Source: Chiloscyllium plagiosum (lineage: Eukaryota). Taken from it: 64,000 nt of DNA. Below, piece after piece: positions 830 through 63,405 of this stretch. Location: assembly GCF_004010195.1 (NCBI RefSeq), contig NC_057719.1, forward strand, positions 9,463,112-9,527,111, given 5' to 3'. A program made the translations under genes and the position numbers. Positions within the stretch are counted from its first letter, which is position 1, and each line of letters starts with the position of its first letter. The notes under the pieces were generated by a model that ran no database searches, was not told the DNA's origin, and worked only from the letters and a program-made list of their open reading frames with translations.

Positions 830-905
830 CAAAAAGTGTGGCACTGGAAAAGCACAGCATCTGAGGACCAGGAGAGTCGGTGTTTCGGCTATAAATCCTT
901 CATCA
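830..905 (-). mobile_element. Penelope terminal-repeat mini-insert (family A) with a degenerate, truncated hammerhead
   Basis: gtgtggcactggaaaagcacagc...gtttcggctataaatccttcatca is homologous to the end of the PLE at 58590-58725. Confidence 0.7.
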
Positions 906-919
906 AAAAGCAGGGATCC

Positions 920-1230
920 CGCAACCGAATTTTGGGGAATTCCACTATAAACCTTCCTCCAGCTGAAAAATATCCATTGACCTTGACTCTCTGTCTCCTA
1001 ACCCTCAGCCGATTTTGTATCTAAGTTAACACAGTCCCTCTTATGACATGACCTATTAGTCTCCTGTTGTGGGGCACTTTATGAAATGCCTTCTGGAAAT
1101 CGACGTACACCACACCACTAGTGTTACCCTCGCCCTTATTGTTAACTCTTCAAAAAAAAAACTGTTAGTCAAACACGATTTCCCCTTTAGAAACTCATGC
1201 TGAATCTTTCAAATCAACCCCCCTTTCTCC
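920..1230 (-). mobile_element. Degenerate CR1 RT fragment
   Basis: Reverse strand shows remnants of FLKGKSCLT and VYVDFQKAFHKVP. Confidence 0.65.
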
Positions 1231-2052
1231 ACGTGTCTGTTAATTCTATTCCGAATTCTATGTGACGACTAGTTCTACTTCAGACTGTGCCTCCACTGCC
1301 ATTTGAGGATGAGAGCTTCCAAGACACATGACCTTTTGAGAGCAAGTAGAAGAGGCAAGATATTTTCCATATCCAACTTGTCAAAGTACCCTTCAGGATC
1401 TTGTATATTGTTGCCTCTTAGACGTCTAAACCCATGTGGATGTAAGCCTAGTCAATCCAATCTTTCCTCATAAGACAACAAGCCCATTCTGGATTCCAGC
1501 CTATCTTTCTTTGGAGACCCAGCAGAATGTTGGGACTGCTGGACTGACTCGACAGACAGCAACATGACAGAAGTTTCTTTTTGTTGATTTGTTGGTTGTC
1601 AGTGTTAATAATAACATAAATGCATATTCATATGTATAATAAGCAAGTATTTGCATGCGGGGGAGAGTGTGGGAGGTGGAAGGATGCTAATTTTAGAACT
1701 GACACATCATTTCCAGGTGTCCTGAGCAACAAACCTGGATTTCTGCAGCCAGGCCTCCGGAGTGAAGCATTGGTGCCAAACCCAATTGTGGATTTCACAC
1801 TCTGAGCTGTGTCACCACCTCCACAATCAACACGATGACAAGCAAGCTGCCGTCCCACCCATCTGGTACTTACCAGCTTTCCTGGAGTCAAAGGACAGGT
1901 TTTCCTGTCTAAATGCCTCAGTAATCCTCAATTTTCAGAATATTTCATTGCAAGGATGTGGATTTTCAAGAACTATTCTTATTAACTCTCATTCGTCTAA
2001 CTGCCTATCCTTCACAATTATACAGGTTCCATCCACTTGTCAGTACTGATTG

Positions 2053-2850
2053 GACAAAAATCACACAACACCAGGTTATAGTCCAACAGGTTTAATTGGA
2101 AGCAGTAATTTTCGGAGCACCGCTCCTTCATCAGGTGGCTGGGAAGTATAAGATTGTAAGACACAGAATTTACAGCAAAAGTTTATAGTGAGATGTAACT
2201 GAAATTATATATTAAAAAAGACCTTGATTGTTTGTTAAGTCTTTCATCTGTTAGAATGACCATGTTGGTCTCAGTTTTTTCATATGTAAATCACAAAACT
2301 TGTTTTAAAAATGGTTACATTCTCTTGTGAACTTTAACAGTTGGTGTCTGCCAGCCCAGATAATGTATTGAAGGTGTGAGTTCCCCTATGTGATACTGGC
2401 TGTGCCCCAATGATTAGATTGATTCTAATCTAAAAAAATGAATTTACAGAATCTTACAAGGATTCATGCAGTTTTTGAGCAAAGTAAAATGTAACTCTGC
2501 AAGTACAAATTCACCCCACACACTTATAGGTGTATGTGTGCATGTGGGTGCGTGTGTAGGGAGGAGGAGGGGAGACGTTGTGAGTGTCTGTGAGAGAGTG
2601 TGGGTGAGTGTGAGTATAAATGGGTATAAGTCTGTGAGAGGGTGCATGTGTGTGTGCATGTATGTGTGTGTATGTGTGCGTGTGTGTGTGTGTGTAGTGC
2701 AATGGGGTCACCTGTAGTGTGACATGAACCCAAGGTACTGGTTGAGGCCACCCCATATGGGTACTGAGCTTAGCTATCACTCTCTGCTCGGCCACTTTTC
2801 GTTGCTGCCTGTCCCGAAGTCCGCCTTGGAGGATGGTCACCCGAAGGTGC
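2053..2850 (-). mobile_element. 5'-truncated Penelope-like element (family B): GIY-YIG C-terminus, CA-rich 3' UTR and terminal repeat with a degenerate hammerhead
   Basis: Minus strand reads LRVTILQGGLRDRQQRKVAEQRVIAKLSTH/GLNQYLGFMSHYR*, resembling the PLE endonuclease end. CUGAUGA-GGAGC/GCUCC-GAAA lies at about 2110-2138. Confidence 0.8.
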
Positions 2851-2869
2851 TAGGACAAGGTTGTTGTTT

Positions 2870-3155
2870 TAAATTCATTCATGGAATGTAGGCACACTGC
2901 CCAGGCCAGAATTTTATTGCCCATCCCTAATTGCATGGGGCAGTTAAGAGTCACATTGAGTCACATGTAATCCAGGGCAGGTAGGGATCATAGCTTATTT
3001 GAACTAGATGGGTTTTCCCTGACAATCAATGGACTCATGGACATCATGAGAATCTTACTTTGTTTTATATTTCATTCAAATTCTGCATGGCGGGATTCGA
3101 ACTGGAATCTCTGGGTTAACAGTTTAGCGAAACTATCACAAAGCTGTCAACTCCC
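2870..3155 (-). mobile_element. tRNA-derived SINE (family sharing its 3' tail with LINE family 2)
   Basis: tttattgcccatccctaattg...gttaagagtca...ggcgggattcgaac; homologous to 13485-13795 and 18541-18888. Confidence 0.7.
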
Positions 3156-6250: not shown

Positions 6251-6385
6251 GGCCTTATGTTGTAGCTTCACTTTATTGCTGCGTATACCTGCAGCTGATC
6301 TTGGCACGTTCGATTATTCTTACCATTGAACTAGGGTTGACATCCTGACTTGATGGTAATGGTAGAATGGGGGATATGCCGGACT

Positions 6386-6595
6386 GAAAATGTGTTGCTG
6401 GAAAAGCTCAGCAGGTCAGGCAGCGTCCAAGGAGCAGGAGAATCGACGTTTCGGGCATGAGCCCTTCTTCAGGAAGGCGTTCGGACTCATGCCCGAAATG
6501 TTGATTCTCCTGCTCCTTGGATGCTGCAACACATTTTCAGCAACACATTTTCAGCTCTGATCTCCAGCATCTGCAGTCCTCACTTTCTCCTCGAA
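6386..6595. mobile_element. Fold-back Penelope mini-element (family A) with a 13-bp TSD
   Basis: The left arm is the reverse complement of the right arm. Flanked by gatatgccggact (6373-6385) and gatctgccggact (6596-6608). Confidence 0.85.
6441..6475 (-). ncRNA. Minimal type I hammerhead ribozyme motif, core intact
   Basis: Minus strand: UUC CUGAAGA A GGGC-UCAU-GCCC GAAA C GUC GAUU. Palindromic ACGU helix III; helix I is only 2 bp. Confidence 0.7.
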
Positions 6596-10000: not shown

Positions 10001-10850
10001 TGGAACAAGGTTATTCGGATTAATGTCTACATTCTTTCCTCCTCCTGAAGGCAAGTAGCGACCCAGCAATTGCTTACCCAAACATTGTTGAGCTATGTGG
10101 GGTGGGGGGGGAAGATGTGGTGATTGTCAATCAACTGGAAGCTTGAGAAAGGCTGCCATGATAAAGAGAAAGCATCCCAGTTCCATTAAGATACTTTCTC
10201 TCGCAGCCTAATCAAGTGTTAGGAGTTCAAGTCCAGATATTCTTTGAGAAATATTGTCACAGACACAACCTAATCAAATGCGCTTTACCAGAAGGAATCA
10301 ATAAACAATGAGCCAGAAATTGAACATTAAATAGATAACAGAAGGATAAGATTTTAGAAAGATCCCCCTTCAAACACTTAGTGAGTACTGAGGAAAAGTA
10401 TGAATATTTTTGCACTTGGAGTGTATTCCAAAGATCTCTGAGAGCTGGTGTCGGCCTCACAATAGAGCAGATTTAGGTACTGTTTACAGTGCAGCTGGGA
10501 ATTTGCATTTGTTGAGAATTTTGCAGCAGATGCTGGTTCACATTTACATATTTTGAACAGCGGGTAAGCTGCTTTCTCTCATCCTGGTTTAGATTCAACA
10601 CATTCCCGGCAGCTGGGCTCAATTTAGAAGGAGTACTTTTTCTTCGTTTTTGTTTTGTCGGGGAGCGAGTTAACACTGCCTTCTGGTGCCCACCAATCCA
10701 GTTCTATTCGCGAGGGTCTCAGAGACCACTCTGAGCCAGGAGGCTATAGGAGACCACTCTGAGGCAAGAGGCTGTAGGAGATCACTCTGAGGCAAGAGGC
10801 TGTAGGAGACCACTCTGAGGCAAGAGGCTGTAGGAGATCACTCTGAGGCA

Positions 10851-11220
10851 AAGTTAAAAATCACACAACACCAGGTTATAGTCCAACAGGTTTAATTGGA
10901 AGCACGCTAGCTTTCGGAGCGGTGCTCCTTCATCAGGTGATAGTGGAGGGCTCGATCGTAACACAGAATTTATAGCAAAAATTTACAGTGTGATGTAAAT
11001 GAAAATACACATTGAAAAATTGATTGTCTGTTAAGCCTTTCATCTGTTAGAATACAGTGATAGTTTCACTTTTTTCATGTGTAAATCACAAAACCAATTT
11101 TTTAAAGTTGCATTCTCGGGTTAGCTGTTAACAATGGTGATAGCTAGACAATATGTTGAAGGTGTTAGACCCCTGTGTTCTCTGTCTATGCCATGATGTT
11201 TAGATTATCACTGTATTTAC
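10851..11220 (-). mobile_element. Penelope family B 3' fragment inserted in the minisatellite
   Basis: aaaaatcacacaacaccaggttatagtccaacaggtttaattggaagca... is colinear with 2056-2420. Confidence 0.85.
10905..10939 (-). ncRNA. Minimal type I hammerhead ribozyme motif (family B)
   Basis: Minus strand: CAC CUGAUGA A GGAGC-ACC-GCUCC GAAA G CUA GCG. Palindromic AGCU helix III; one mismatch in helix I. Confidence 0.65.
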
Positions 11221-13050
11221 AGGAGGCTGTAGGAGATTACTCTGAGGCAAGAGGCTGCAGGAGACCACTCTGAGGCAAGAGGCAGTAGGAGACCACTCTG
11301 AGCCCTGTGTTCTCTGTCTATGCCATGATGTTTAGATTATCACTGTATTTACAGGAGGCTGTAGGAGATCACTCTGAGGCAAGAGGCAGTAGGAGACCAC
11401 TCTGAGACAAGAGGCTGCAGGAGACCACTCTGAGGCAAGAGGCAGTAGGAGACCACTCTGAGACAAGAGGCTGTAGGAGGATCACTCTGAGCCAAGAGGC
11501 AGTAGGAAACCACTGTGAGGCAAGAGGCAGTAGGAGACCACTCTGAGGCAAGAGGCTGCAGGAGACCACTCTGAGCCAAGAGGCTGTAGGAGGATCACTC
11601 TGAGCCAAGAGGCAGTAGGAAACCACTGTGAGGCAAGGGGCAGGAGGAGACCACCGTGAGGCAAGAGACTGTAGGAGATCACTCTGAGCCAAGAGGCTGC
11701 AGGAGACCACTCTGAGGCAAGGGGCAGGAGGAGACCACTCTGAGCCAGGAGGCTGCAGGAGACCACTCTGAGGCAAGGGGCAGGAGGAGACCACCGTGAG
11801 GCAAGAGACTGTAGGAGATCACTCTGAGCCAAGAGGCTGCAGGAGACCACTCTGAGGCAAGAGGCTGCAGGAGACCACTCTGAGGCAAGAGGCTGCAGGA
11901 GACCACTCTGAGGCAAGAGGCTGCAGGAGACCACTCTGAGGCAAGAGGCAGTAGGAGACCACTCTGAGGCAAGAGGCTGCAGGAGACCACTCTGAGCCAA
12001 GAGGCAGTAGGAAACCACTGTGAGGCAAGAGACCGTAGGAGACCACTCTGAGGCAAGAGACCGTAGGAGACCACTCTGAGGCAAGAGACAGTAGGAGACC
12101 ACTGTGAGGCAAGGGGCTTTAGGAGATCACTCTGAGACAGGAGGCTGTAGGGGATCACTCTGAGGCAAGAGGCTTTAGGAGATCACTCTGAGACAGGAGG
12201 CTGTAAGAGACCACTGTGAGCCAAGAGGCTGTAGGAGATCACTCTGAAGCAAGAGGCTGTAGGAGGATCACTCTGAGCCAAGAGGCAGTAGGAAACCACT
12301 CTGAGGCAAGAGACCGTAGGAGACCACTCTGAGGCAAGAGACCGTAGGAGACCACTCTGAGGCAAGAGACAGTAGGAGACCACTCTGAGGCAAGAGGCTG
12401 TAGGAGACCACTCTGAGCCAAGAGGCTGCAGGAGACCACTCTGAGCCAAGAGGCAGTAGGAGACCACTGTGAGGCAAGAGGCTGTAGGAGACAAGAGGCA
12501 GTAGGAGACCACTGTGAGGCAAGAAGAATGTACACACACACAGAGCACCAAAATGGGAAGCTGGGAAGGGAACAACAAATGATAGGATATTATGATAAGG
12601 TGAATGAATAACAGGTTGGACTATAACCTGGTGTTGTATTAATAAGAAAGGGAAGAGGGATAGCATTAACATGTTACAACAAACCTTATAACTTAGCTGC
12701 TAACTGGTTAGCCTGTCCCTAGTTGCCTTTGAGAAGGTGGTAGTTAGCTGATTTCTTGAACCTAACTCAAACATTCATATAAAAATAAACAAACAACTCC
12801 TAAACCAGAGAGGTCTTTCAGCACAAGGCTGTGGCCTAAGTGACATTTTCTACAATACTGGAATCTTCTGACATACTTGTAACAGATATTTTTAAAAATA
12901 TGCAATAGTAATTCTAACAGAATTTAATTATATTAATTGTGTTTGAATGTGGCATGTTTGTAAGGCTTTTACATTAATCACCAATCTAAGTATCTGAAAT
13001 TTATCACCCTTGACCCATTCATCTGAAACAAGCATGTTTATTGTAACAGT

Positions 13051-13130
13051 CGAGAGTGTGGTGCTGAAAAAGCACAGCCGGTCAGGCAGCATCCAAGGAG
13101 GAGGGGAACCGATGTTTTGGGCAAAAGCCC
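13051..13130 (-). mobile_element. Penelope family A mini-insert
   Basis: gtgtggtgctgaaaaagcacagc...gggcaaaagccc, flanked by ttgtaacagt / ttgtaccagt. Confidence 0.75.
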
Positions 13131-13484
13131 TTGTACCAGTTTAGTGCTTAATCATTAAGGGTATGAGAGACCCAGTCAAGAGGATTAACGAATTTAGAAA
13201 AACACTCACTTGGTATATCGTCTTTCTTTCAGAAGGACTGAAATTCCACAAAAATAGGGCAGCATCTCAGGGAGGAAATTGTAATGTTCTGTTGTTCAAT
13301 TGCTCTTTGTTGGATTGCGTTTCTTTTTGACTACTCCCCTTCTCTACCTCTCCACTTTCCTGAGATGTGGTGATCTTCAGTTTAAAACACTTCCTGTATA
13401 ATGCGAGCACAAACCTCTGGGGGTCCGGCATGACTACGGAGACATCACCTTTATCAATGAAGCTGGGGTGTTTGTTTATTTATT

Positions 13485-18888: not shown

Positions 18889-18889
18889 A

Positions 18890-21164: not shown

Positions 21165-21285
21165 ATTTCTGAAGAAGAGCCAGAAGACTTGAAATGTTTT
21201 CTCTCCACAGATGTTGTGAGATCTGCTGAGTTTCTACAGCAAATCTTGTTCAGACTTCCAACATCCGCAGGCTTTTATTTTACAT
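21165..21285 (+). mobile_element. Penelope terminal-repeat remnant with a degenerate hammerhead
   Basis: ttctgaagaagagccagaagacttgaaatgtt followed by ctctccacagatgttgtgagatctgctgag. Confidence 0.55.
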
Positions 21286-25825: not shown

Positions 25826-26315
25826 ATCATAGAAACATAGAAACTATGAGCTGGAGTAGGCCATTCAGTCCTCATTCTTGATGAAGGGCTTTTGCCCGAA
25901 ACGTCGATTCTCCTGCTCCTTGGATGCTGTCTGATCTGCTGTGCTTTTCCAGCACTACACTCTCCATTCAGTCCTTTAAGCCAACTCCATCATTCAACAT
26001 GATCATGGCTGATCATCCAACTCAGTCCCCTGTTCCTACTTTCTCTCCATATCCTTTGATCCCTTTAGCCCTACCAACTATGAATCCCTACTTGAAACAT
26101 TCAATGTTTAGGCCTCAACTGCTCTCTGTGGTAGAGAATTCCAACGGCTCACCACCCTTTGGGTGAAGAAATGTCTCCTCATCTCAGTCCTAAATGGCCT
26201 TCCCCATATCCTCAGTGTGTGACCCCAGTTCTGGGCCGCCTGATCATCAGGAACAGGGGCTTCTTGTGTTTACATTGTCTGGGTCCTGTTAGAATTTTAC
26301 AGGTTTCTATGAGAT
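25826..26315 (-). mobile_element. CR1 3' end fragment hosting a hammerhead mini-insert
   Basis: (ctatgttt)n tail, aatggcctactccagctc, and MRRHFFTQRVV-like frame. Confidence 0.85.
25873..25963 (+). mobile_element. 91-bp Penelope family A insert (hammerhead plus short tail) with a perfect 12-bp TSD
   Basis: TSD ccattcagtcct at 25861-25872 and 25964-25975. AUUC UUGAUGA AGGGC-UUUU-GCCC GAAAC GUC (core C3 changed to U). Confidence 0.85.
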
Positions 26316-27107
26316 CAGTCAGGAGAAAATAATATAGAAATGACTTCTGGAAGGAAAATAATGCTGAAATACATTACAGATTTACAATTTACAGATGACA
26401 CAAAGGTAGGTGGAAAGGCAGGTTGCAAGAAGGATATGAATAGTTTACAGAAAAATATTGATAGTTTAAGTAAGTGGGCATAAAAGTTGGCAAAGACATA
26501 TAATGTGGGAACTTGTTCATTTTGTAAGGGAGAATAAAGGAACAGAGTATTATTTAAATGGAGAAAAACTGCGGGACGCTGCAACACAAAGTGACTTGGG
26601 GCTACTCATATGCAAAACACAGAAAGCTAGCACTCAGGTAATCAGGAAGGCCAATGGAATGTTAGCACTTATTTCAAGTGGACTTGGAGTATAAGAGTTG
26701 GGAAGTCCTACTGCAATTGTACAAGATGCTGGTGAGACTGCATCTGGAGTACTGGGTGCAGTTTTGTTCCCCTCATTTAAGAAAAAATATCATTTCATTG
26801 GAGGCAGCTCAGAAGAGGGATCCTTAGTGTGGAGGGATTGTCTTTTAAACAAAGCTTAAACAGATTGGGACTCTATTCACTAGAATTTAGAGCAACGCGA
26901 GGTGATATTATAGAAACTTATTGGCTTCTTAATGGGCTTGATAGGGTAAATGCTGAGAGGATGCTTTCCCCATGGGAGAGTCTGGGATAAGAGGCCATCG
27001 TGTCAAAATAAAGGAGAGCCAACTTAAGGCTGAGATGAGGAGGAATATCTTCTCTCAGAGGGTTGAGAGTCTTTGGACTCCTTGTCACAGTAAATTGTGA
27101 AAGACAG

Positions 27108-27226
27108 AAAAAAGTATAGATGCTGGAATTCAAGGTAGACAGGCAGGGGGCTGGGAGAACACAGCAATACAGGCAACATCAGGAGGCGGAGAAGTCAATG
27201 TTTCGGGTGTAAACCTTCTTCAGGAA
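27108..27226 (-). mobile_element. Penelope terminal-repeat insert with a hammerhead-like motif
   Basis: agatgctgga...aatgtttcgggtgtaaaccttcttcaggaa (minus: CUGAAGA..GAAA). Confidence 0.65.
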
Positions 27227-27303
27227 AGTTGTGGGGGCAGAGTCCTTGTGTATATTTAAGGCTGAGATGGATAGATTCATAATCCTTCGGGAAAGTAAGG
27301 GTT

Positions 27304-27399
27304 AACAGTCAATAGTGTGGCACTGGAAAAAGCACAGCAGGTAAGGAGCACCTGAGGAGCAAGAGAGTCGACATTTCAGGCATAACCCTTCATCAGGAA
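27304..27399 (-). mobile_element. Penelope family A insert with a hammerhead motif
   Basis: Minus strand: UUC CUGAUGA AGGGUUAUGCCU GAAA UGUC GAC. Confidence 0.7.
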
Positions 27400-28431
27400 A
27401 GGATAGGAAAGTGGACATGAGAAATGCTGGATCAGTCACGATCCTTTTTAATGGTGGAGGAGCTTTGAATTGCAAAATGGACTACTCTTGTTCCTATTTC
27501 TTGTAGGCCTTACAAACCCCCCTCATTTTTCCTGAACTCCAGTGACTATAATCCATACAGATCAGTCAGGATCTTACTGAGCAGCAGAATGGGCTTGAGC
27601 AACTGAATATTCTGCTCCTGTTTCCTATGATCTGATGGTGACATTCTCAAAGAAGTACATCAACAGCTACCCAATTGATTAGGATGTAGGAAGGTCATAC
27701 TGGGATGAGAATAATTGGAAGTATTTCTAACATCGGAGTTCTGTATACTCATAACAGATTGGCAGTGGGCCTTTATTCAAAGAGCTATGAGAACAATTTC
27801 AAAAATAAATGATTGGAATCATAATTCTTTTCCACCTTCCTCCCCAGAAGACACAATAATAAACTGAACTGTGGCTATCCCTGACCATGATTGTTTTATT
27901 TCTCTCTGCATTGGATCTGTCTCATTTCTATTTGCAGTATTTCATTAAAAAGGAGCTGCCCTCGTGAAATCTCTGCAATTTGCAAAGAAATCGAATGCAA
28001 CTGTTCCTTGACTTCAAAGATATATGACCAGGATTTGGTGTCATTAATAACTTAAAACTTGTGCTGCCTGGCCTTCTGAAAACTGCATTTACTCCTGTCA
28101 TAATGTGATGCTGTGATAGCGAGCGCATGATTTCCAATAGGGGAGAGCCAGACACAGATGGGGAGAAAAGCAAAATCCACCTATACCGATCTTTGAAGAT
28201 GACCGGACAAATCGAGGAGTCCGTTTCAAAAGCGTATGATAAGGCCCTGTAACCAAATGCCTGCATGTTTTGCCCAACCTTTATAGAAGCACAGCATGTG
28301 GGCCTCAACTAGATTATTGAATGCTTTTTCCACACTTTAGACAGGATGTCAAGGCATTGGCGAGGGTTCAGAGGGTACTTACTGCAAACCTACCAGGGAC
28401 TAGAGGTTTCAGTGATATCGAGACACCAAAG

Positions 28432-28599
28432 TCAGAAGTCACACAACACCAGGTTATAGTCTAACAGGTTTATTTGAAATCACCAGCTTTCAGAGCGCTC
28501 CAAAGCTTGTGATTTCGAATAAACCTGTTAGACTATAACCTGGTGCCTAGGGACTTCTGACCTTGTCCACCCCAGTCCAACACTGGCACCTCCACATCA
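28432..28599. mobile_element. Fold-back Penelope mini-element (family B variant) inside a degenerate CR1 (about 28340-28960)
   Basis: Inverted arms caccaggttatagtctaacaggtttatt / aataaacctgttagactataacctggtg. TSD gagacaccaaag / gagataccaaag. Confidence 0.85.
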
Positions 28600-34675: not shown

Positions 34676-34989
34676 GGTAGGCCAGTCTGCTTAGTCTTTG
34701 AAATGGTTTAATCATGTTGCTCCCTGCTGCACCTATCTTTTAGATATTCCAAATTGCTGGAAGATTGGTGAATGTGCAGGTTTCCACTGGATAACGTAAG
34801 GGTTGTGCTCACCTAACGGCAGTGTGATGTGTGCAGCAAACGATTCTGAGTCACATAAAATTCAGAAAAAGAAGTGTTGGAGAAACTCAGCAGGTCTGGC
34901 AGCATCTTTGAGAGTGAAACAGAGCTTAAGTTTCAAGTCTGTTATAACCGCTCTCGAGAACCCATTTCTATTTCTCTCTCGACAGAGCT

Positions 34990-43069: not shown

Positions 43070-44109
43070 AAGGGGCAATAGAGGGGCTCACTGCAATTAG
43101 TAAACCATTCATGCACTCTTTACTGCTGCTCACCAGTCTCTGGAAGAAAGTAAGCACTTTTGGATGTACAGGTAGTGGATGGGTTCCATTCTGCAGTCCA
43201 CTTGATTTGATTTGAATTATTATTGTCACATGTACCTCAGCACAGTGAAAAGTTTTGTTTTGTGTGCAGAACAGGCAGATCATACCGTACAAAGTGCATT
43301 GGAGTGATAGAACAAAGCAAGGAATACAATGTTACGGCTGCAAAGAAGGTGCACAGAGATCAACATTAAATTTAAAATTTGAGTGGCTTATTCAGAAGTC
43401 TAATAAGTCTAATAAGCTATTCTTGAATTTATTTGTATGTGTTTTCAAACTTTTGTACCTTCTGCCTGATGGAAGAGGGTGGAAGAGAGTATAACCGGGG
43501 TCATAGAGTCAGAGAGATGTACAGCATGGAAACAGACCTTTCAGTCCAACTTGTCCATGCCGACCAGATATCCCAACCAATCTAGTCCCACCTGCCAGCA
43601 CCTGGCTCATATCCCTCCAAACCCTTCCTACTCATATACCCATCCAAATGCCTTTTAAATGTTGCAATTGTACCACCCTCCACCACATCCTCTGGCAGCT
43701 CATTCCACACACGCACCACCCTCTGTGTGAAAAAGTTGCCCCTTAGATCTCTTTTATATCTTTCTCCTCTCAACCTAAACATATGCCCTCTAGCTCTGGA
43801 CTCCCCAACCCCAGGGAAAATACTTTGTCTACTTATCCTATCCATGCCCCTCATCATTTTTTAAACCTCGATAAGGTCACTCCTCAGCCTCCGATGCTCC
43901 AGGGAAAACAGCTCCAGCCTGTTCAGCCTCTCGCTATAGCTCAAATCCTCCAACCCTAGCAACATCCTTCTAAATCTTTTCTGAACCCTTTCAAGTTTTA
44001 CAACATCTTTCCAATAGGAAGGAGACCAGAATTGCATGCAATATTCCAACAGTGGCCTAACCAATGTCCTGTATAGCTGTAACATGACCTCCCAACTCCT
44101 GTACTCAAT

Positions 44110-44241
44110 GAGTTTTGAGAAGATTTGTAGTTCAGGTTGAGGCTTTGTATGTAGGTTTGCTCGCTGAGCTGAAAGGTTCATTTCCAGACGTTTCGTTACC
44201 TTATTAGGTAACATCTTTAGTGGACCTCAGGCAAAGCAATG
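44110..44241 (-). mobile_element. Penelope-type insert (distinct family) with a hammerhead fold
   Basis: Minus 44184-44223: CCA CUAAAGA U GUUACCU-AAUA-AGGUAAC GAAA C GUC UGG. Flanked by ctcaat repeats. Confidence 0.7.
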
Positions 44242-44393
44242 CTCAATACTCTGTCCAAGAAAAGAAAGCAAACCAAACACCTTCTTCACTATCCTATCTA
44301 CCTGTGATTCCATTTTCAAGGAGCTATGAACCTGCACTCCAAGCTCTCTTTGTATAGCAACACTTCCTAGGACCTTACCATTAAGTGTATAAG

Positions 44394-44762
44394 GAGAAAG
44401 TGAGGTCTGCAGATGCTGGAGATCAAAGTTGAAACTTTATTGCTGGAACAGCACAGCAGGCCAGGCAGCACCCAGGGAACAGGAGATTCGACGTTTCGGG
44501 CACAGGCCCTTCACAATTGTAAGGTTCTGGGGAATTTCGCTGAACAAAGGGACCTTGGAGTGCAGGTTCATAGTTCCATGAAAGTGGAGTTTCAGGTAGA
44601 TAGGATAGTGAAGCCTTCATTTAGTAGGTTTTCCTTCAGACCATTGAATATAGGAGGTCATGTTGCGGCTGTACAGGACATTGGTTAGGCCACTTTTGGA
44701 AAGTGGGAGGGGGAGTTGAAATGCTGTGCCACAGGTTGGTTGGGTTGGTTCGTCCGGGTGGC
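44394..44762 (-). mobile_element. Composite Penelope family A insertion containing an oppositely oriented CR1 piece, with a 16-bp TSD
   Basis: TSD ccattaagtgtataag at 44378-44393 and 44763-44778. Ends match 58592-58711 and 59068-59124. Confidence 0.85.
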
Positions 44763-45819
44763 CCATTAAGTGTATAAGTCCTGCTAAGATTTGCTTTCCC
44801 AAAATGCAGCATCTCGCATTTATCTGGATTAAACTCCATCTGCCACTTCTCAGCCCATTGGCCTATCTGATCAAGGTCCTATTGTAATCTGAGGTAACCC
44901 TCTTCACTGTCCACTACGCCTCCAATTTTGGTGTCATCTGCAAACTTACTAACTGAACCTCTTATAGGGCTAGGAGGGGTCTTTAATTATATTGGTTGTT
45001 TCCTGAGGCAGTGGGAAGTACAGATGGAGTCAATGGATAGAAGGCTGATTTGTGTGATGGACTGGGCTATGTTCACAACTCTCTGTAGTTTCTTGAAGTC
45101 TTGGGAAGAGCAGTTACCAAATAAGATTATGATGCATCTAGATAGGATGCTTTTTATGATGTATCTATTTGCAAGTTGATTTGTTCGCAGTCAGAACGTA
45201 ATGCAGGACAATGTAAAGCAGCTGTTTGTAAGGACAGGAAATGTTCATACATCGGTCCGTAACATGACATTTCTGTGTGAGATTGCGTTTGTAAATCAAG
45301 AACACTCTATACAGTGAGGACTGGATCATGTTCGGGTGCTGCCAAGCGTACTTCAACATAGAGTATTCCCAGGGAGCAGAGACCACCAACCACCCCACTG
45401 CATTCTCAACGAGTGGCCTCTTAAACATGTTCAGTAAGGGGTACTCAGTATCTAAATGGTAACACATTCCAAAACAGGTGGAGGATCCAAAACTTGCACA
45501 GGAACATTAATGAAAGAGAAAAACACCAATCAGCTCTGACTTGAATGTCTCCACTGAAATAAAGACACTAAGAAGATCAACACCAACTCAGTTCAATTCC
45601 TAGGATTTTTAAGATTTACAACTAATTTAAGATTTAAAATTGAATTTACAACTTAATAAAAATGTAAGACCAAGATTACATCCAGTCTCAGTTCCAATGC
45701 AAGTTCCCTTACAGAATGGCTATGAGGTAAACAGGAATGTCCCACTGGAAAAAGGTCCCCACTCCGAGATTGGGCGTTGAGTTGAAATGGAGATGAATCA
45801 AAAGGTAGGTAATGACATT

Positions 45820-46548: not shown

Positions 46549-46695
46549 ATCTCTTCGGTGGGCCATCCTTGCCAAAGGTTGAACACCCTCTCATCCACGA
46601 ACAGACTTGATGACCAGGGAAAGGTTAGAGCGATGGTCATGAAAAGACAACCATCATTTTCTCCAGCACACATGGCCAGTTAATTAATTTCAGAG

Positions 46696-46883
46696 CTTAA
46701 AAATGTGTTGCTGGAAAAGCGCAGCAGGTCAGGCAGCATCAAAGGAGAAGGAGAATCGACATTTAGGGCTTATGCCCGAAACATCAATTCTCTTTCTCCT
46801 TTGATGCTACCTGACCTGCTACGCTTTTCCAGCAACACATTTTTAAGCTTCGATCCCCAGCATCTGCAGTCCTCACTTTCTCC
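46696..46883. mobile_element. Fold-back Penelope mini-element (family A) with a 15-bp TSD
   Basis: Inverted arms centred on gggcttatgccc. TSD taattaatttcagag at 46681-46695 and 46884-46898. Confidence 0.9.
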
Positions 46884-48226
46884 TAATTAATTTCAGAGAC
46901 AGCTTAACCACCTCATGGACGCACAACCTTCACAAGATAATGGCCTTAAAAAAATAGTTTTAAATAATTCAAAACAAAATAAAGGTTGTACAAGATAGGT
47001 TCCCTTGTTTGCAAAAAGCTACGTAGCCAATTTTCGCATCTCATGTACTAACTTCTGCAGAACACTGTGAAATATTTGTCCCATAAAAGAGATCAAATTT
47101 TAATAAGTTTGGCATTTTATTTGCACGCATTGAGATGGCTCAACAAATGTATGTTATCAAGACTGGAGGGAAGAAATCCAAGGAGCTTCATTGTGGCAGG
47201 ATTTTCTTTTTCCGAAAGGCAGCAATAACTGAGCTCCCTCTTTCCTGCAGCATGTCTCATAGCCAGAAACATTTCCAAGTGTTTATATGAATAGCACCTG
47301 AGATTGGGTTACATGGAATTCAAATCATGTTGTCACCTGTAGGAGCAGTGCTTTTTTTGAGTAGTTTATAATGTCTTTCAAACCCTTAAGCATGTAATGG
47401 ACTCAAACACACTTCCCAACACATTTATGTTTTCTTTTTCTGTTGTTGCCAAGGAGCGAAAACCATAAAGTACCATTTCTTACTCTCAGTCAGACATTTT
47501 TCTCCCTTCTCATTCTGCTGGTGGAGTTTGCAGAAACTGAAGGATGTTCATATTCTTAGGCCTTGTGGATATACTCCAGAGGTACAACTGGATGCTCCCT
47601 CCCTCCCTCCACCCAAAAGCGTCCAGCGGTGGGTTTACAGCCTCGGGTACTTGAAACAGATCTCCTCTCATCCTGAGCAGGGCCTTCTCACCACTGTCCT
47701 GCCCTGACAGAATCTGCCTGACATCCTCACAGGGGGAAGGCGGAGTTGCGTGCTCTTGCTAAACTTCAGATCCTCAAGTGGTCCAATAACATCCGCTTGC
47801 TACCCCAGCTTCAACTCAGTGGCCAGTGGGAAGGGTTCAGAGTCAGGTGAGGACCTCCCAGGTAGGCTGATTGGGGGGGGGGGGGGGGGATGGTTTGGGG
47901 CACAGTTGTTCAGAACAGGGGCGGGAACGGGGTCTGCGTCAGGGGCCACCTTTGAAGGTCAGTCACCCTCTCCCCCAAGGATTTCAGTCCTGGATTCTGT
48001 ATCACCAGTTGCCCTTCAAATCACAATACCCACACTCCTGGCATTTCCCCCCACCACATCCCCCTATCCAAATGACCCTCATCTCCCATCCCAGCCATGG
48101 CACACTCGTCCCCCACCACAGCTGGTGGCGCCAACCTGCTCTTATGGACCAGACCAAACTGCCTCGAAATATTTTAAGAAGGTGAGCCTGACCCGAACAT
48201 TTTCTTATTTAAAGGCAAATATAAAG

Positions 48227-49022
48227 TGTTGCATTGCAGCTGCAACTTGATTGGTCAAACTACTTGACATTAAGCAAAACACCATTTATTCATACACTAT
48301 AGTTAAAATATGACAAAAGAAAAAATAAAGAAATGAATTGGCTTAGCTGTGACTCTATTGCAAAACACAACGCAATAATAGATTCAGTAATTATTTCTAA
48401 TTAACTGCTCCAATATAGTAACATCCCATAAGCACACACTTGGAAAAAGGCAAATTCAGAAAGCAGATTGTCTCACATGCAACTCCAGCAGGTAAAAAAA
48501 AAATCAAGGGAAAACTCGGAGAGAGTGCAGCGGAGAGAGATGTACTGCTGTAATCGACCAGCGACAACTGCTACTGAGAAACTAACAAACTAAAAACAAA
48601 AACAGAAATTGCTGGAAAAGCTCAGCAGGTCTGGCAGCATCTGCGGAGAGAAATCAGCGTTGACACTGTGGGTCCGGTGATGCTTCCAATAGAAGGCTGC
48701 TGCCCAGGCCCCTCACCAGGAATCATCAGTTATCACAACCCTGATGAGGGGCTGTTGCCTGAAATGTCGACTCTCCTGCTCCTCGGATACTGCCTGACCT
48801 GCTGTGCTTTTCCAGCACCACACTTTACGACTCTGATTCTCCAGCATCTGCAGTCCTCACTTTCTCCTAGTTGCTTCTATTGATCCAACTTCAAAAAAAT
48901 ACCAAGGCCTCACAAGCTGTTTACTTGACTGGCTTTCCAAATTGACAGCTTGGTAGCCCTGCCTGAAAACCTCTCTTTAAAAAAAGGACAATGTAACCTC
49001 TTAAAGCCATAGTATTATCACA
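48227..49022 (-). mobile_element. Possible LTR-like element interrupted by PLE inserts
   Basis: TG...CA termini and a minus-strand AATAAA near 48285. No TSD confirmed. Confidence 0.25.
48590..48869. mobile_element. Two Penelope terminal-repeat inserts in opposite orientation; plus-strand hammerhead motif at about 48739-48773
   Basis: CC CUGAUGA GGGGC-UGUU-GCCU GAAA UGUC GAC followed by the family A tail ending ctcactttctcct. Confidence 0.75.
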
Positions 49023-49429
49023 CTGCTTCCCGGCTTCAGCACTTTGACTCTGGAGCGGCTTGCAGTCTCAGAAGTGGCCACCAGTCTTGGTGGCGCTGCT
49101 GAGATTATAGATTGGCAGGATCTGCCATCCTGAGATGAAATGTCCTCCCCTCTGACAGGAGTCTTGCCTCCCGCCTGAAAGCTCTGCTTGCATTCCCGTT
49201 TCAGCTACCAGCTGGCACAGGCGAGAAAGGAAAGCCCACCATCAGAAAATATCTGCTCAAGTGTCGGTCCAGTCAATAAGCATCGTCAGGCATGTAAAAG
49301 GAGGGAGGTGCCGTATCAATAAAAGTGAAATATGGCAGATGGTGGGCATCTGAAACACAGAGAATGTTGGAGAAACTCAGCAGGTATGGGGGATCCTGCA
49401 GAGAGAGAAACAGAGCTCCCGTTTGGGGG

Positions 49430-49740: not shown

Positions 49741-49754
49741 CAGAAAGCAACGAA

Positions 49755-50147: not shown

Positions 50148-51374
50148 AATACTGTACAAGAATCTCACGAGTCTCAAAGCATTACTGCTGTTTTTCTCTG
50201 TCTCCCCAGATGCTGCCAGACCTGCTGAGTTTCTCCAGCGTTCTCTGTGTTATGTACAGCATGAAAGCCATATCCGACCATGGGACAAGCTGTCTACACA
50301 CTCAAAGACTTCAATTTTAAATGGTATGGCAAACCTCCGGGCTCAATTGCCTATGGCTGTTCCTTGCATTTTGTGTTCAGACTGAAAACAAATTATCATC
50401 AAGTTGCATTTACTTTTTTTCCCAATGACCATAAAGCTGTGCTTTCCAGGTTCTTAATCCTTCTACCAGTGGGAACAGTTTCTCCCTGTCTACTGTATAG
50501 GCAAATGTTATGGGGTCATGGGTTCAAATCCCTCAATGTATTTGAATTGAATAAAAATCTAACCTAATTTGAAACCGAGGTGAGGAGGAATTATGTTCCT
50601 CAAAGGGTTGTGAATCTGTGGAATTCACTGTCCCAAAGTGTGGTGCTGGTTGGGAGTCTGAGAAAACTGACTTGAAGGGGGTAAACTGAGTTAACGGATC
50701 TTTAATAAGTGAATGGTTATGGAGAGTGGACAGGAAAGTGGGCTTGAGAGTGAGGTGAGATCAGCCACCCTATTAAAAAACAGAGCAGTCTCACGATTGG
50801 GATGGGCTGATGGCGAATTGCTGACTCCTGTTCTTAATGGTAACCATGTAATTGGCATAAAAACTCAGCTAGTTCACTCATCTCCTTCAGGGAAGAAAAT
50901 CTGCTCTCCCGACCTGGTCTGGCCTACATGTAACTCTAGATCTAAAATAATGGTTTTGACTTGTAACTGCCCACTAGACAGTTAGGGATGGGCTTAGACA
51001 TGAACACATTTGTTGAAAATGGCGAGATTCTTATCAGACTGGAATTGACCACTGTGGTTCAGAAACAGCAGTGCCACCCACTGAGCTACAGTCTGTACAT
51101 AATAGGGTCCTCATGTGGTCCACAAACACACTGGTCCTGATAACACCTTTTCATGTTCTGCCACGTTATGGTGCTATATAAATTGGGGTTACAGTTGCTG
51201 TGTAGACTGGCTCCTGATTCTCAAAAAGTCAATTCAGGACCTGGTATTTTGCATCCTTCATCTGAAGAAGCTGTCTTCAGCAACACCCCTCACCCCACCA
51301 GGATCATAACTCATGCTGACATGTAATTCAGCTGACTGAAGCAATGCATCAGCTCAGTTTCCTTTGCAAACCAG

Positions 51375-56801: not shown

Positions 56802-57068
56802 TGCAGGAGCAAAGTGCTGGAATCCGTACTGAAAACAACAAATGCTGGAGATCTCAACAGGTCAGGTAGCATCCGTGGAGAGAGAGCAAGGTAATGTCTC
56901 AAGTCCAGATGACTCTTCATCAGAGCTTGGTCTCTCTCTCTCTCTCTCAGTCTCTCTCTCTCTCTCTCTGTCTATATGTCTGTTTCTCTCTCTCTCTCTC
57001 TCTCCTCTCTCTCTCCCCCCACAGATGCTGCCTGACCTGCTGTGATTTCCAGCACTTATGTTTTCGGC
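56802..57068. mobile_element. Fold-back Penelope mini-element with an internal (CT)n expansion and an 11-bp TSD
   Basis: TSD ataaaaacact at 56791-56801 and 57069-57079. Inverted arms; degenerate minus-strand CUGAUGA..GAGA. Confidence 0.75.
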
Positions 57069-57214
57069 ATAAAAACACTCTCATTCCCATAATGACTTTT
57101 ACAATGTCAGGATGCTCCAAGTGCACTGGAATCGAATGAAGTACTTTTGAAGTTTAGTACCAAGTTGCAATGAATGAAATGCAGCTGTCAATGTGTGCAC
57201 AACATGTTCCATAA

Positions 57215-58589: not shown

Positions 58590-59206
58590 GAGGAGAAAGT
58601 GAGGTCTGCAGATGCTGGAGATCAAAGTTGAAACTTTATTGCTGGAACAGCACAGCAGGTCAGGCAGCATCTAGGGAACAGAAGATTCGACGTTTCGGGC
58701 ACATGCCCTTCTTCAGGAATGAGCAGAGAGTGTTCAGCAGGAGAAGATAAAAGGTAGGGAGGAGGGACTTGGAGGAGGGGCGTTGGAAATGTGATAGGTG
58801 GAAAGAGGTCAAGGTGAGGGTGATAGGTCGGAGTAGGGTGGAGGCGGAGAGGTCAAGAGAAGACTGCAGGTCAGGAAGGCGGTGCCGGGCTGGAGGGATC
58901 CGGCTGAGACAAGGTGGGGGGAGGGGGGATGAAGAAACTGGTGAAGTCCAAGTTCATCCCCTGCGGTTGGAGGGTTCCCAGTCGGAAGATAAGACGCTCC
59001 TCCTCCGACCGTCGGGTTGTTGTGGTTTGGCGGTGGATGAGTCCAATGACCTGCATATCCTCGGTGGAGTGGGAGGGGGAAATGCTATGCTACAGGGTGG
59101 TTGGGTTGGTTCGTCCGGGTGGCCCAGAGGTGCTCTCTGAATCGCTCCGCAAGTAGGCGGCCTGTCTCCCCAATATAGAGGAGGCCACACCGGCTGCAGC
59201 GGATGC
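58590..59206 (-). mobile_element. 5'-truncated Penelope-like element (family A): GIY-YIG endonuclease, 3' UTR and hammerhead-bearing terminal repeat, with an 8-bp TSD
   Basis: Minus strand: (VI)YCIRCSRCGLLYIGETGRLLAERFREH...EEERLIFRLGTLQPQGMNLDF. TSD aatatatc at 58582-58589 and 59207-59214. Confidence 0.92.
58685..58720 (-). ncRNA. Intact minimal type I hammerhead ribozyme motif
   Basis: AUUC CUGAAGA A GGGC-AUGU-GCCC GAAA C GUC GAAU: 4-bp helix I, helix II, palindromic ACGU helix III and a GUC cleavage triplet. Confidence 0.85.
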
Positions 59207-59214
59207 AATATATC
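58935..59214 (-). pseudogene. Penelope GIY-YIG endonuclease domain (disrupted)
   Basis: Y-C-x-x-C-x-x-C-x3-YIGET, R..EH, catalytic-type E and terminal G.N. A stop codon and deletion lie near 59085-59092. Confidence 0.85.
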
Positions 59215-59583: not shown

Positions 59584-59651
59584 AGGAGAAAGTGAGGACT
59601 GCAGATGCTGGAGATCAGAGCTTAAAAACGTGTTGCCCTTCTTCAGGAATG
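59584..59651 (-). mobile_element. Internally deleted Penelope family A terminal repeat
   Basis: aggagaaagtgaggactgcagatgctggagatcagagcttaaaaacgtgttg joined to cccttcttcaggaatg. Confidence 0.75.
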
Positions 59652-59989
59652 AGGACCTATACAGGTGTTTAGCCAACACAGAAGCTTCCTTCCACCTGAC
59701 CTCATTGAACACCACCAGGAAAAATTACTTCTTTCTCAAAGAACCTTTTGTTTATTAAGAGTCAAACCTCATATTAAATAATAAAGAGTTTAGTCTAGTA
59801 GCAAAGATTAGATAACTGCAGACTTTAGAAGCTCGTAGGTCATGGACAGAGGCAAACAGAGGGAGTTGATGCTTTGTGAGGCAGATGTAGATGGATCCTT
59901 GATTTTCAAGAGGAGGAAAGATTATCGGGGGTATACAGGGATGGAAAGGTGAGGTAAAAATTGGAACAGTTCACGCTGTTCTTTCATTG

Positions 59990-60888: not shown

Positions 60889-61867
60889 TGAAGAAGATGG
60901 GGTTTTGAATGTCAAAAAAAGGCAGTTTCCTGGTTGCCACGGTAGCTTTTAATTCCACATTTTGTTTAAATCCCATTGGTTGCAGGGATGGCATTTAAAC
61001 CCCTTGCCTCAGTCAAAGCATTAATCTTTTAATAACCAGTGCCAAAGGCATAACCACTACACTACTATTTTTCCCTCCAATGCACCCTTGGAAACCTGGC
61101 ACCATTTGCAGATGGATTACTGATGTTCATTTGTGATCTTCTGTGAATGATAAAACATGGGCATGGAACCCAACTGTGCAACTGGCCTGTTGAACAAAGA
61201 GGGCTGAATATTTCTTCCCCAACCCCAGCACTCAAGAGCCTTTTATTTGATTCGAAATATGACCGTATTGAATGCCACAGTACCATCTTCTGTGCAAGAA
61301 AGCTATCTAATCAATGGGAAGAAAAATGCAGAAACAGCAAAAAATTAGGTCATAAACATAAAAAGAATGCATTCATTACATGGCTTGAATGAACATTCTC
61401 CAAGGTAATTGGCATTTGGGGCAATGAAAAGACTGATGATGAGTTAGGCACGGAGCAGCATTTAATCAGATGAATACTGGAAAATTCTGCACAGATTTCT
61501 CTTTCTGTGTTGTTTAAAAGTCACGATACTGCATCAAAGGAAAAAAAGCCCCTTAAGAAAACAGACAGGAAGTGCACAGCCCCATCCCTCATCATAAAAT
61601 CGTCATTTGTTTTCAATGGGTAAATTTATAACATTTGAGTCTTAATCAGTAGGACATACTTTGCTTTATTTTATTTTTGAACAGTTTGCATTGGGAATAT
61701 TGGCTTTCAAAAGCCCTCCATCTCCAAAATTGATGTGGACAGAGGCAAAGATTTACACTGTTAGAGAAGCAGAAAATAAATCCCTTCCTCCATACGTCTT
61801 TCAGAGTCTTTCTCCTACAAATTACCGTGAAAGGGGGTGAGACACATCTCTGCCCAAACTAGTGTCA

Positions 61868-61886
61868 CAGCACCATCTAGTGTCGC
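61868..61886 (-). promoter_or_regulatory. Candidate CTCF binding site
   Basis: Minus strand GCGACACTAGATGGTGCTG resembles the CTCF core CCAC(C/T)AG(A/G)(G/T)GGCGC. Lies in non-repeat DNA. Confidence 0.45.
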
Positions 61887-62009
61887 TACCCTATCTGAAA
61901 GGACTCAGCCAAATGTTTCCAAGATTTGGACCTGCACTTGGCTGTATGCTTCATTGATAAAATGCAGATAAAGTGCGGTTAGTGAGTACCTAACTTGATT
62001 GTTGCACAT

Positions 62010-62670
62010 TTAGAGTCACAGAGAAACACAGTCCGGAAACAGACCCTTCGGTCCAACTCGTCCATGCCGACCAGATATCCTAAACTAATCTAGTCTCATG
62101 CGTGGCACAGTGGTTAGCACTGCTGCCTCACAGCGCCAGAGACCTGGGTTCAATTCCTACCTCAGGCAACTGACTGTGTGGAGTTTGCACATTCTCCCTG
62201 TGTCTGTGTGGGTTTCCTCTCACAGTCCAAAAAATGTGTAGTTTATGTGAATTGGCTGTGCTAAATTGCTCGTAGTGTTAGGTGTAGGGAATGGGTCTGG
62301 TTGGGTTGTGCATTGGAGTGGACCTGTTGGGCCAAAAGGCGTGTTTCCACACTGTAAGTAATCTAATCTAATTTGCCAGCATTTGGCCCATATCCCTTGA
62401 AACCCTACCTATTCATATATCCATCCAGATACCTTTTAAATGTTGCAATTGTACCAGCCTCCACCACTTCCCGTGGAGGCTCATTCCATACATGCACCAC
62501 CATCTGTGTGAAAAAATTGCCCCTTAGCTCCCTTTTAAATATTTCCCCTCTCACCTTAAAGCTATGCCCTCTAGTTTTGAACTCCCTCACCCCAGGGAAA
62601 AGATCTTGGCAATTCATCCTATCCATGGCCCTCATGATTTTCTAAGCCTCCGACGCGCCAGGGAAAACAG
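62010..62670 (-). mobile_element. HER1-like CR1 3' fragment split by an HE1 SINE
   Basis: ORF 62405-62635: KTRGHSFKVRG..KRELRGNFFTQ. Confidence 0.9.
62100..62371 (+). mobile_element. HE1-type SINE
   Basis: gtggcacagtggttagcactgctgcctcacagcgccagagacc...gtaatctaatctaa. Confidence 0.93.
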
Positions 62671-62684
62671 GGTTTCTGTGATCC

Positions 62685-63405
62685 AGGACTGCAAGGGGAG
62701 ATAGTAATTGCTGGAAGAACTCCACAAATCTGTGGACAGAAAGCAGCGTTGATGCTTCAAGTCCAGTGGCCTTTCTTCAGAACTGATTGGAGCTGAGGAA
62801 AAGTGGTGTATACGCTGATGACAGGGGTTTGGAGGGGGGGGGAGTAAACCAATAGGTGGATGTGGAGCCCAGAGAGCAAGAGAAAGCAAGCCAGGGAAAA
62901 AGAAAAACTGAGAATGGGGACAATGAGTAGGTGGAAATCATAGAATCTCTACAATGTCAAAGCAGGCCATTCAGCCCATACCAGTCCTTGCAAGACCCTC
63001 CCACCAAGAGTCAACCCCCTACCCCTGCAACCCTATGCACTATGGGCAATTTAGCACAGCCAGTCCACCTAACCTGTACATTTTTGTACTGTGGGAGGAA
63101 ACCCACACAGGCACGGGGAGAATGTGCAAACTCCACACAGACCGTCGCCCGAGGCTGGAATTGAACCTGGGTCCCTGAAGCTGTGAGACAACACTGTCAA
63201 CCTGTGGCGTTGGTTATATTAAAAGTAGCCCATGTGGTGACAGAAACTAGGGGCATGGGGGTGGATAAAAGACATGAAATGCCCCAAACTTGATGTTGAG
63301 CCCTGAGGACTGCAGGGTCCCCAAGCAGGAGACATGCTATTGTTCTCCCAGCTTGCGCTGAGTCTTGTTGGAGCACTGCAGCAGATCCAAAACACAGAAA
63401 TGTCT
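62685..63405 (-). mobile_element. Degenerate Penelope-like 3' fragment (GIY-YIG C-terminus and terminal repeat) split by an HE1 SINE
   Basis: Minus strand VLDLLQCSNKTQRKLGEQ*HVSCLGTLQSSGLNIKF. Degenerate CUGAAGA motif at about 62750-62783. Confidence 0.7.
62935..63210 (-). mobile_element. HE1-type SINE
   Basis: ggggagaatgtgcaaactccacacagac...ggaattgaacctgggtccctg. Confidence 0.88.

Follow-up and report, generated by a model that had tools for sequence, protein, structure and literature searches.

Short hammerhead ribozyme inserts in a shark genome are terminal repeats of Penelope-like retrotransposons, and their 5' ends probably mark the start of the element mRNA

We studied a 64,000-nucleotide stretch of the genome of the shark Chiloscyllium plagiosum (contig NC_057719.1, positions 9,463,112 to 9,527,111 of the forward strand; hereafter the window, with coordinates counted from its first letter) that contains many short inserts with hammerhead ribozyme motifs. 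These inserts belong to several protein-coding Penelope-like retrotransposons (Penelope-like elements, PLEs), of which they are the hammerhead-bearing terminal repeats. That the motifs are real hammerhead-bearing sequences, as observed in a first-pass annotation of the window, was confirmed. A strict scan identified six perfect matches to the core plus helix II in the 64-kb window (0, 1, 0, 0, 0 and 0 in six dinucleotide shuffles), and 13 matches were obtained in a core-plus-helix-II scan that tolerated up to one core mismatch (1–7 in shuffles). Searching with family profiles identified 32 arms in the window, against zero when the window was reversed; an arm with an internal deletion at 59584-59660 brought the set to 33 hammerhead-family arms in approximately 27 insertions, or one arm per 1.9 kb. 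The "about 20" inserts of the first-pass annotation were real, and the figure was slightly low once remnants were counted. An Rfam scan of the window, with E values up to 5, reported no hammerhead family and only hairpin-like miRNA matches below threshold.

Both halves of the ribozyme core were kept in 15 window arms, and all letters of the conserved core (CUGANGA ... GAAA ... UH) in eight of these (C3 at 2134, 6472, 10936, 21169, 27223, 27396, 48741 and 58716); the same core was kept in 57 of 95 sampled family A copies. Only the arm at 58716 combined, among the 15, an intact palindrome, helix II and 4-bp helix I. The inserts, assigned to families A to E, are listed below (UTR, untranslated region; ORF, open reading frame; LINE, long interspersed element, of CR1 type; SINE, short interspersed element).

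826..905, minus strand: family A arm, old, with C3 and helix II damaged (family profile, core table).
2055..2695, minus strand: family B long copy with intact core letters (C3 2134), a damaged helix I and 3' UTR up to a (TG)n tract; upstream limit approximate.
6377..6591, unstranded: family A head-to-head pair; the left arm (minus) has an intact core (C3 6472) and a short end, the right arm (plus) a tail; target duplication of ~11 nt.
10847..11222, minus strand: family B long copy inside an array of 28-bp tandem units, with an intact core (C3 10936) and a single mismatch in helix I.
12615..12640, plus strand: weak 26-nt family B fragment (profile E 2.9e-05).
13032..13132, minus strand: family A arm starting within the core.
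21165..21275, plus strand: family D arm with intact core letters (C3 21169) and decayed helices.
25872..25967, plus strand: solitary short family A copy inside a CR1-type LINE, starting 5-7 nt before the core; 12-nt target duplication; C3U.
27104..27233, minus strand: family E arm, related to A (C3 27223), absent from the list of the first-pass annotation.
27303..27401, minus strand: family A arm with intact core letters (C3 27396) and CpG decay in the helices.
28427..28599, unstranded: family B head-to-head pair in which the 5' core half is missing and only the right arm is tailed; target duplication of ~15 nt.
29331..29434, unstranded: small fold-back remnant of family D type (profile label A).
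29727..29941, unstranded: family B head-to-head pair; the right arm has a tail and starts ~7-8 nt before the core (C3 29822); target duplication of ~15 nt.
30482..30596, plus strand: family D arm starting within the core (profile).
30720..30801, minus strand: family A arm with C3 and G12 changed.
34866..34948, minus strand: family D arm starting in helix II (profile).
35172..35230, plus strand: weak, uncertain family D-like fragment (profile E 1.5e-05).
44105..44246, minus strand: tailed family C copy, Penelope/Poseidon-like, carrying G5A; the element ORF begins with an ATG where helix II starts.
44389..44765, minus strand: complex family A insertion in which a single 14-nt target duplication encloses the hammerhead end with its tail (44389-44513), CR1 pieces in rearranged form and, at 44703-44765, a GIY-YIG fragment.
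46694..46884, unstranded: family A head-to-head pair with the fold in helix II and a 15-nt target duplication; only the right arm is tailed.
48575..48664, minus strand: family D arm, 3' block only (profile).
48736..48868, plus strand: family A arm with tail and intact core letters (C3 48741).
49328..49424, minus strand: family D arm, 3' block only (profile).
50158..50260, plus strand: decayed family D arm (profile).
56809..57070, unstranded: family D head-to-head pair with (TC)n between the arms; left arm A14G (C3 56923).
58591..59207, minus strand: young, 5'-truncated coding family A element with the C-terminal part of GIY-YIG, 3' UTR, the only fully intact hammerhead (C3 58716) and tail; 8-nt target duplication.
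Between 58689 and 58688, minus strand: predicted cut of the 58716 hammerhead.
59584..59660, minus strand: family A arm with tail, most of the ribozyme lost by internal deletion.
62701..63405, minus strand: family D long copy with an endonuclease C-terminal remnant (63256-63393, tblastn E 1.2e-06), 3' UTR split by a SINE, and a hammerhead (C3 62780, A15.1G; helix and core state read by eye).

The interval 63250-63405, initially annotated as a hammerhead, proved to be the C-terminal endonuclease remnant upstream of the family D hammerhead at 62780.

Exact cores numbered 124,974 (A), 19,889 (B), 849 (C) and 265 (D) genome-wide, 145,977 in total, and reversed-pattern controls gave none. To place the window in context, 24 other 50-kb regions set by round coordinates (1,178,246 non-N bases, 1.18 Mb) were searched with the profiles; these contained 359 arms, equal to 3.0% of the sequence or one arm per 3.3 kb. 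Extrapolated to the 3.56-Gb genome this is approximately 1.08 million arms. The high density reported for the window was borne out, and the window is modestly denser than the sample, near the genome average and not exceptional.

All five types have a helix II with G10.1-C11.1 and an unpaired base after A9; the search patterns already required helix II, so that the fetched loci are paired there by construction. Helix I was absent from those patterns, and it changes by compensatory pairs between the families. Tallied by a script counting outward from the core, the pair 2.1-1.1 was C-G in A (93/107 paired) and B (32/36), A-U in C (17/18) and U-A in D (26/30), and the pair 2.2-1.2 was U-A, A-U, C-G and U-A in A, B, C and D, respectively. 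Helix I is 3-4 bp long, with a U-U mismatch at 2.3-1.3 in most family A subfamilies (39/107 paired). Helix III is a palindrome in which 15.2/16.2 is C/G in A (74/107), G/C in B (34/36), and C/G with CpG decay in C and D. The cut triplet is GUC in A and C, CUA in B and GUU in D. The first-pass description of minimal type I PLE hammerheads in several families, with an ACGU or AGCU palindrome, a family-specific helix II and helix covariation between families, held. Judged by sequence, the arms fit the definition of the minimal PLE hammerhead in PMC4209133. By analogy, activity would need a dimer or an element protein; minimum-energy cofolds of three copies did not form the canonical dimer.

The block that follows the cleavage site is common to A, D (the type at 56802 and 21165) and E (the type at 27223), and B and C are unrelated to this block or to each other. 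The contexts initially described as at least four and unrelated consequently reduce to three unrelated groups: A/D/E, B and C.

Families A to D could be linked to PLE coding sequence; no such link was found for E. The young family A element at 58591-59207 includes a GIY-YIG domain (PF01541, E 1.2e-05) at 59088-59228, a piece for which a first look at the genome gave 75,679 candidates, 150 of them scored. One contig of sequencing run X15 spans the empty site of this element, skipping 625 bases (58582-59206) with 8 letters that fit both sides, so the element is recent or polymorphic. The empty site reflects either an insertion polymorphism or a species difference and is usable as a marker of recent activity. 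In one further family A locus (L087) there was a reverse transcriptase (RT) motif (RVT_1 E 0.0058, below the curated cut-off) and a CX2-5CxxC linker as in Neptune, and the likely family A ORF start lies downstream of the tail (locus L064). The family C hammerhead lies downstream of an RT and an endonuclease without the CX2-5CxxC linker, with the ORF start at helix II; the RT motif in locus L078 had an RVT_1 E value of 0.00011, also below the curated cut-off. On the zinc-finger-like linker alone, family A resembles Neptune and family C resembles Penelope/Poseidon. For B and D the coding evidence consists of the endonuclease C-terminus, which the hammerhead follows in locus L006 (B, E 1e-06) and in the window at 63256-63393 (D). 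No intact full-length ORF was recovered among the loci examined, because young long copies are gapped in the assembly. Eight loci with open frames of 629-927 aa were considered as full-length elements and rejected, as the frames are mostly N gaps.

Two fixed 3' ends, approximately 38 nt apart, were found in each family, and the additional sequence, the tail, was present on exactly one arm of head-to-head pairs in 44/49 cases for the A anchor, which also catches D and E, and in 7/7 for B. A target duplication could be identified for 28 tail-bearing copies, with lengths of 9-17 nt. PLE insertions with 5' truncation, an adjacent inverted copy and a 30-40 bp tail at one end have been described (PMC8557442, PMC3846280), and the tail has been explained by the spacing of two internal RT start sites, both strands of the target being extended (PMC11167929).

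The 5' ends were analyzed in 211 copies chosen by a motif 3' of the cut site. After 22 family D copies, 44 unclassified copies and one of the 145 family A copies, at a block edge, were left out, 144 remained, each of which was aligned to 23 long copies. Positions are given relative to the core. Among the 100 copies at risk, 64 stop at 0 to -12, a rate of 0.049 per nt; the other nine bins had rates of 0.001-0.015 (0.004 at +46 to +29, 0.008 at +28 to +24, 0.007 at +23 to +12, 0.015 at +11 to +1, 0.014 at -13 to -30, and 0.001-0.009 further upstream). The modal ends were -4 and -3, with 12 copies each. As 45 of the 64 abut an inverted arm and five a target duplication (14 abut other sequence), these are true ends and not unknown UTRs. 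The pile-up in family B was weaker (11/31 at risk, n=40).

These data bear on two simple explanations. One is that a very abundant PLE was simply truncated at random from the 5' side, without any special boundary; the high 5' truncation typical of PLEs (PMC8557442) would agree with this, as would the 35-44 of 144 copies that stop downstream of the core start and the 36 that extend beyond -12. However, the stop rate in the 13-nt bin is 3-50 times that of any other (p 4e-25 against the highest neighboring rate), and an excess of G at a single position, described below, would go unexplained; we consider random truncation very improbable. Copying of the short inserts from RNA already cut by the hammerhead we find hardly credible: two copies do start exactly at the first base after the cut site, but these two of 144 make no pile-up there, 129 of 144 extend upstream past the cut region, and the stop rate at +24 to +28 (5/134) equals that of the neighboring bin. 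A preferred 5' boundary, as implied by the first-pass term mini-element, thus exists; the status of the inserts as independent mobile units is considered further below.

The sequence around the pile-up is patterned. Base -4 of family A is an A within YYANWYY, base -8 of family B is an A within BBCABW, and family D has TCAGTT at the position matching the site in family A. These A's are initiator-like. Long copies carry C or T before the initiator-like A. At base -5 of family A, G outnumbered A genome-wide by 15,481 to 9,366 (62% G among purines), and at base -9 of family B, G accounted for 2,255 of 2,607 purine cases (86%); the expected share of G is 0.33-0.37. At the control position -6 in family A, a hand count of the first 100 matches listed, out of 9,940, gave 35 G and 65 A. 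Two unrelated families, A and B, therefore both show G far above expectation just before the modal start. Three other origins of the G were examined. A simple fold-back junction explains only 629 of the 15,481 family A cases and perhaps a third of 30 inspected in family B. A splice junction was rejected, since no AG acceptor is present at that site in long copies and the sequence preceding the G is variable; a long subfamily with G at -5 was also rejected, with 0/13 G cases continuing into 3' UTR. An untemplated 5' G in L1 and SVA copies has been taken as a reverse-transcribed cap (PMC4859970), and the repeat of Drosophila Penelope contains an internal promoter of initiator type (PMC2377424). 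The extra G in the shark copies probably marks an RNA end as well.

A structural stop was weighed against this. Under such a scheme synthesis begins in the 3' repeat, and the RT stalls or dissociates on reaching the 5' edge of a folded (dimeric or protein-bound) hammerhead, so that the short copies are structure-induced truncations. The family A pile-up does fall on the 5' strand of helix I, further stops lie within the core (19/119 at +1 to +11), and 3/40 family B ends lie at -4. Stalling nevertheless predicts no G at one fixed position, the family B G (-9) lies 6 nt beyond the 3-bp helix I, and family C copies, with the same ribozyme fold, mostly run through. We regard stalling as unlikely.

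Together, we consider it probable that the inserts are PLE terminal repeats whose short copies (stubs) are dead-end cDNAs, copied from an internal start to the capped 5' end of uncleaved mRNA and integrated by the element's enzyme. The mRNA would start at the initiator-like A, 4 nt (A) or 8 nt (B) before the core, making the hammerhead the first structure of the mRNA; in family A, helix I would be made of its first four nucleotides. The GIY-YIG endonuclease would nick both target strands, each of which would prime at one of the two internal start sites; both-strand nicking and priming have been shown in vitro for an anole element (PMC11167929). Synthesis from the 5' repeat would reach the cap after 95-135 nt and copy it as an extra base, and the short cDNA would be integrated singly or, when both target strands were primed, as a one-tailed fold-back pair. 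Longer copies would come from synthesis continuing into the 3' UTR. We infer, and consider likely, that transcription starts at this A, that the RNA is capped and that synthesis uses the 5' repeat; the stub templates were likely uncleaved, in line with PMC11167929. Long copies could stem from independent initiation in the 3' repeat, from transfer of the cDNA to the 3' repeat, or from a circle made by the hammerheads (PMC4209133).

If the stubs were instead independent non-coding families, SINE- or retrozyme-like, each would have its own internal promoter and depend on PLE proteins for copying in trans. The stubs' defined ends, target duplications and very high copy number would suit such families, as would the internal promoter of Drosophila Penelope (PMC2377424) and the finding that repeats alone sufficed for trans-mobilization in a rotifer (PMC3846280). 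Subfamily A6 has short copies only, most family D copies are short, and transcripts of such families would also give a cap signature. On the other side, five of the six family A subfamilies have both long and short copies, and the coding-linked long copies bear the same diagnostic bases. Almost every junction is unique: in 117 short copies just two junction strings were seen more than once, twice each, and both are simple fold-backs, which indicates that the hairpins form anew at each insertion. In a set of 95 copies from which gapped or very diverged copies had been dropped, the catalytic G12 was lost (G12A) in 22, and the non-catalytic CpG positions 15.2 and 16.2 were lost in 19 and 18. The copies thus decay neutrally, the core CpG being lost as fast as non-catalytic CpG. 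No tandem arrays of hammerhead units were present among 18 Tandem Repeats Finder rows in the window; a few partial tandems occur elsewhere (L064, L161 and R1). In addition, the stubs end at the RT start sites and so are without the downstream RNA that the anole protein needed in vitro (PMC11167929). The stubs themselves are probably not mobile, and we think independent families quite improbable. The first-pass proposal of separate non-coding mobile units was not supported, given also the connection of families A-D to PLE coding sequence.

Several observations weigh against dead-end copying to a capped mRNA end. None of 13 copies of subfamily A6 is long, and A6 could be non-autonomous or its UTR missing from the references. 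Family C copies show no pile-up at the core. The 5' ends spread from approximately -12 to +7 and do not fall on one base; the alignment method itself blurs them by a few nt. Approximately 10-12 of 30 inspected family B G's could stem from the inverted arm or the target duplication, with roughly four G per A remaining after this share is removed. The pattern of the family B position control, in which 4 G were found at -8 among the first 100 of 17,915 matches, admitted the reference base, and family D offered only 9 cases for the extra-G test. End-addition by the RT without a cap could also produce the G. Lastly, the single informative raw RNA run, X20, had reads from both strands, 92-93% of them running into other loci, and showed no pile-up of starts or ends at the core or the cut site; its library type cannot map starts.

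In retroviruses, strong-stop cDNA is a short cDNA that runs from an internal start to the RNA 5' end. A stronger, strong-stop-like version of dead-end copying is possible, and we propose it tentatively: the RT would start only in the 5' repeat and run off at the cap, and a full-length copy would arise only via transfer to the 3' repeat or from RNA cut and circularized by the hammerheads. The roughly one million stubs would then be integrated failures, which would fix the transcription start to the base and show how the pseudo-long terminal repeat (pseudo-LTR) is regenerated. UTR and downstream subfamily were concordant in 64 of 65 classifiable long family A copies, a set enriched for A1 by targeted loci, with one chimera; frequent transfer between RNAs of different subfamilies is thus not supported.

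Other features of the PLE copies were observed. In partial tandems at L064 (2204-2560) and L161 the tail runs into an apparent ORF start and then jumps back to 3' UTR, revealing what follows the tail in family A elements of full length. A contig of run X3 joins the ORF-start region to the base just before the inferred transcription start (L064 2454 to 2199) with six letters between; this single record could be a tandem or an assembly product. A TATA-like box lies approximately 48 nt before the core in family C (L071-L085), and the window family C copy at 44105-44246, a single case, starts approximately 24 nt before the core, where such a box would place the start. At L012 (1640-2330) the two arms of an inverted family B pair flank an RT fragment similar to family A, perhaps through a cross-family template switch. 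Family A copies lie inside the tail region of family B copies at L006 (1340-1420) and L062, and PLE nesting may be non-random. The inverted pieces of the surrounding CR1-type LINE and the GIY-YIG fragment in one duplication at 44389-44765 suggest template switching onto local sequence during insertion.

Elsewhere in the window, a 28-bp minisatellite of approximately 50 units (10722-12492) is broken by the family B copy and has a 132-bp duplication at its edge. There are many 3' fragments of the CR1-type LINE (e.g., 5999-6248, 20068-20567, 21673-22578, 43500-44110 and 53904-54672), and that at 21673-22578 has a 301-aa frame with an RT motif that runs into an assembly gap. A tRNA-headed SINE of approximately 330 bp, presumably resembling the elasmobranch HE1 SINE, has a dozen copies (e.g., 17634-17889, 22837-23177, 38122-38449 and 49431-49742). 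Two-copy local duplications, 84-85% identical (36524-36692 with 37704-37874; 50341-50500 with 53506-53666), and a 116-bp tandem pair at 42834-43069 are unlike the other repeat families here.

The scale of this population is of note in that PLE ends make up approximately 3% of the sampled sequence and outnumber the top count of the 2014 survey (PMC4209133) at least 15-fold, so that this genome offers statistics other hosts cannot. If the 5' pile-up and the G do represent the capped start, 4-8 nt of mRNA precede the catalytic core, the stub templates are uncleaved, and hammerhead cleavage would decap the message. This bears on the in vivo role of the PLE hammerhead (PMC4209133, PMC11167929) and on regeneration of the pseudo-LTR, for which "no obvious mechanism" was stated (PMC2377424). 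The 5'-end signature gives exact positions and makes the Penelope replication cycle testable.

The minimal hammerheads in the pseudo-LTRs of metazoan PLEs (PMC4209133) have the same type I fold, with a short helix I, an unpaired base between A9 and G10.1, G10.1-C11.1 and a palindromic 15.2-16.2, and likewise occur as several families per genome, mostly as solo copies from truncated PLEs and as opposite-strand pairs. The mini-element form, thought in the first-pass annotation to be perhaps poorly described in a shark, was thus already on record there. Counts singled out in that work were approximately 4,000 (coelacanth) and 9,000 (Xenopus), as against 145,977 exact cores and about a million arms here, and its main text makes no mention of 'shark', 'cap' or 'transcription start'. 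Endonuclease-bearing PLEs (PMC8557442, PMC3846280) have 5' truncation, the inverted copy and the tail in common with the present inserts, in which, by contrast, the inverted pair often comprises no more than two arms of ribozyme size, and 5' ends are clustered at a single site. The anole Poseidon element PAc (PMC11167929) has two internal RT start sites that define the tail, both target strands nicked and extended, an ORF start at helix II like that of family C, and uncleaved RNA as its main substrate; that work used synthetic templates in vitro, and its available text describes no genomic run-off copies or cap signature. Non-LTR retrozymes (bioRxiv 10.64898/2026.07.22.740005; PMC6155905) are also non-coding, PLE-derived and carriers of type I hammerheads, and occur in one cartilaginous fish. 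They consist, however, of head-to-tail tandem units with a hammerhead in each, whereas the inserts described here are solo or head-to-head, with no sign of self-copying. L1 and SVA likewise have an extra, cap-derived G at the RNA 5' end (PMC4859970). A literature search, with most subscription journals outside its scope, returned no report of a run-off or cap reading for PLEs, which does not establish its absence from print, and nothing relevant on shark Penelope hammerheads. Compared with retroviral strong-stop cDNA, the short product here differs in being target-primed and integrated in very large numbers. The ribozyme, the inverted arm and the tail have all been published before; the 5'-end signature is what is added here.

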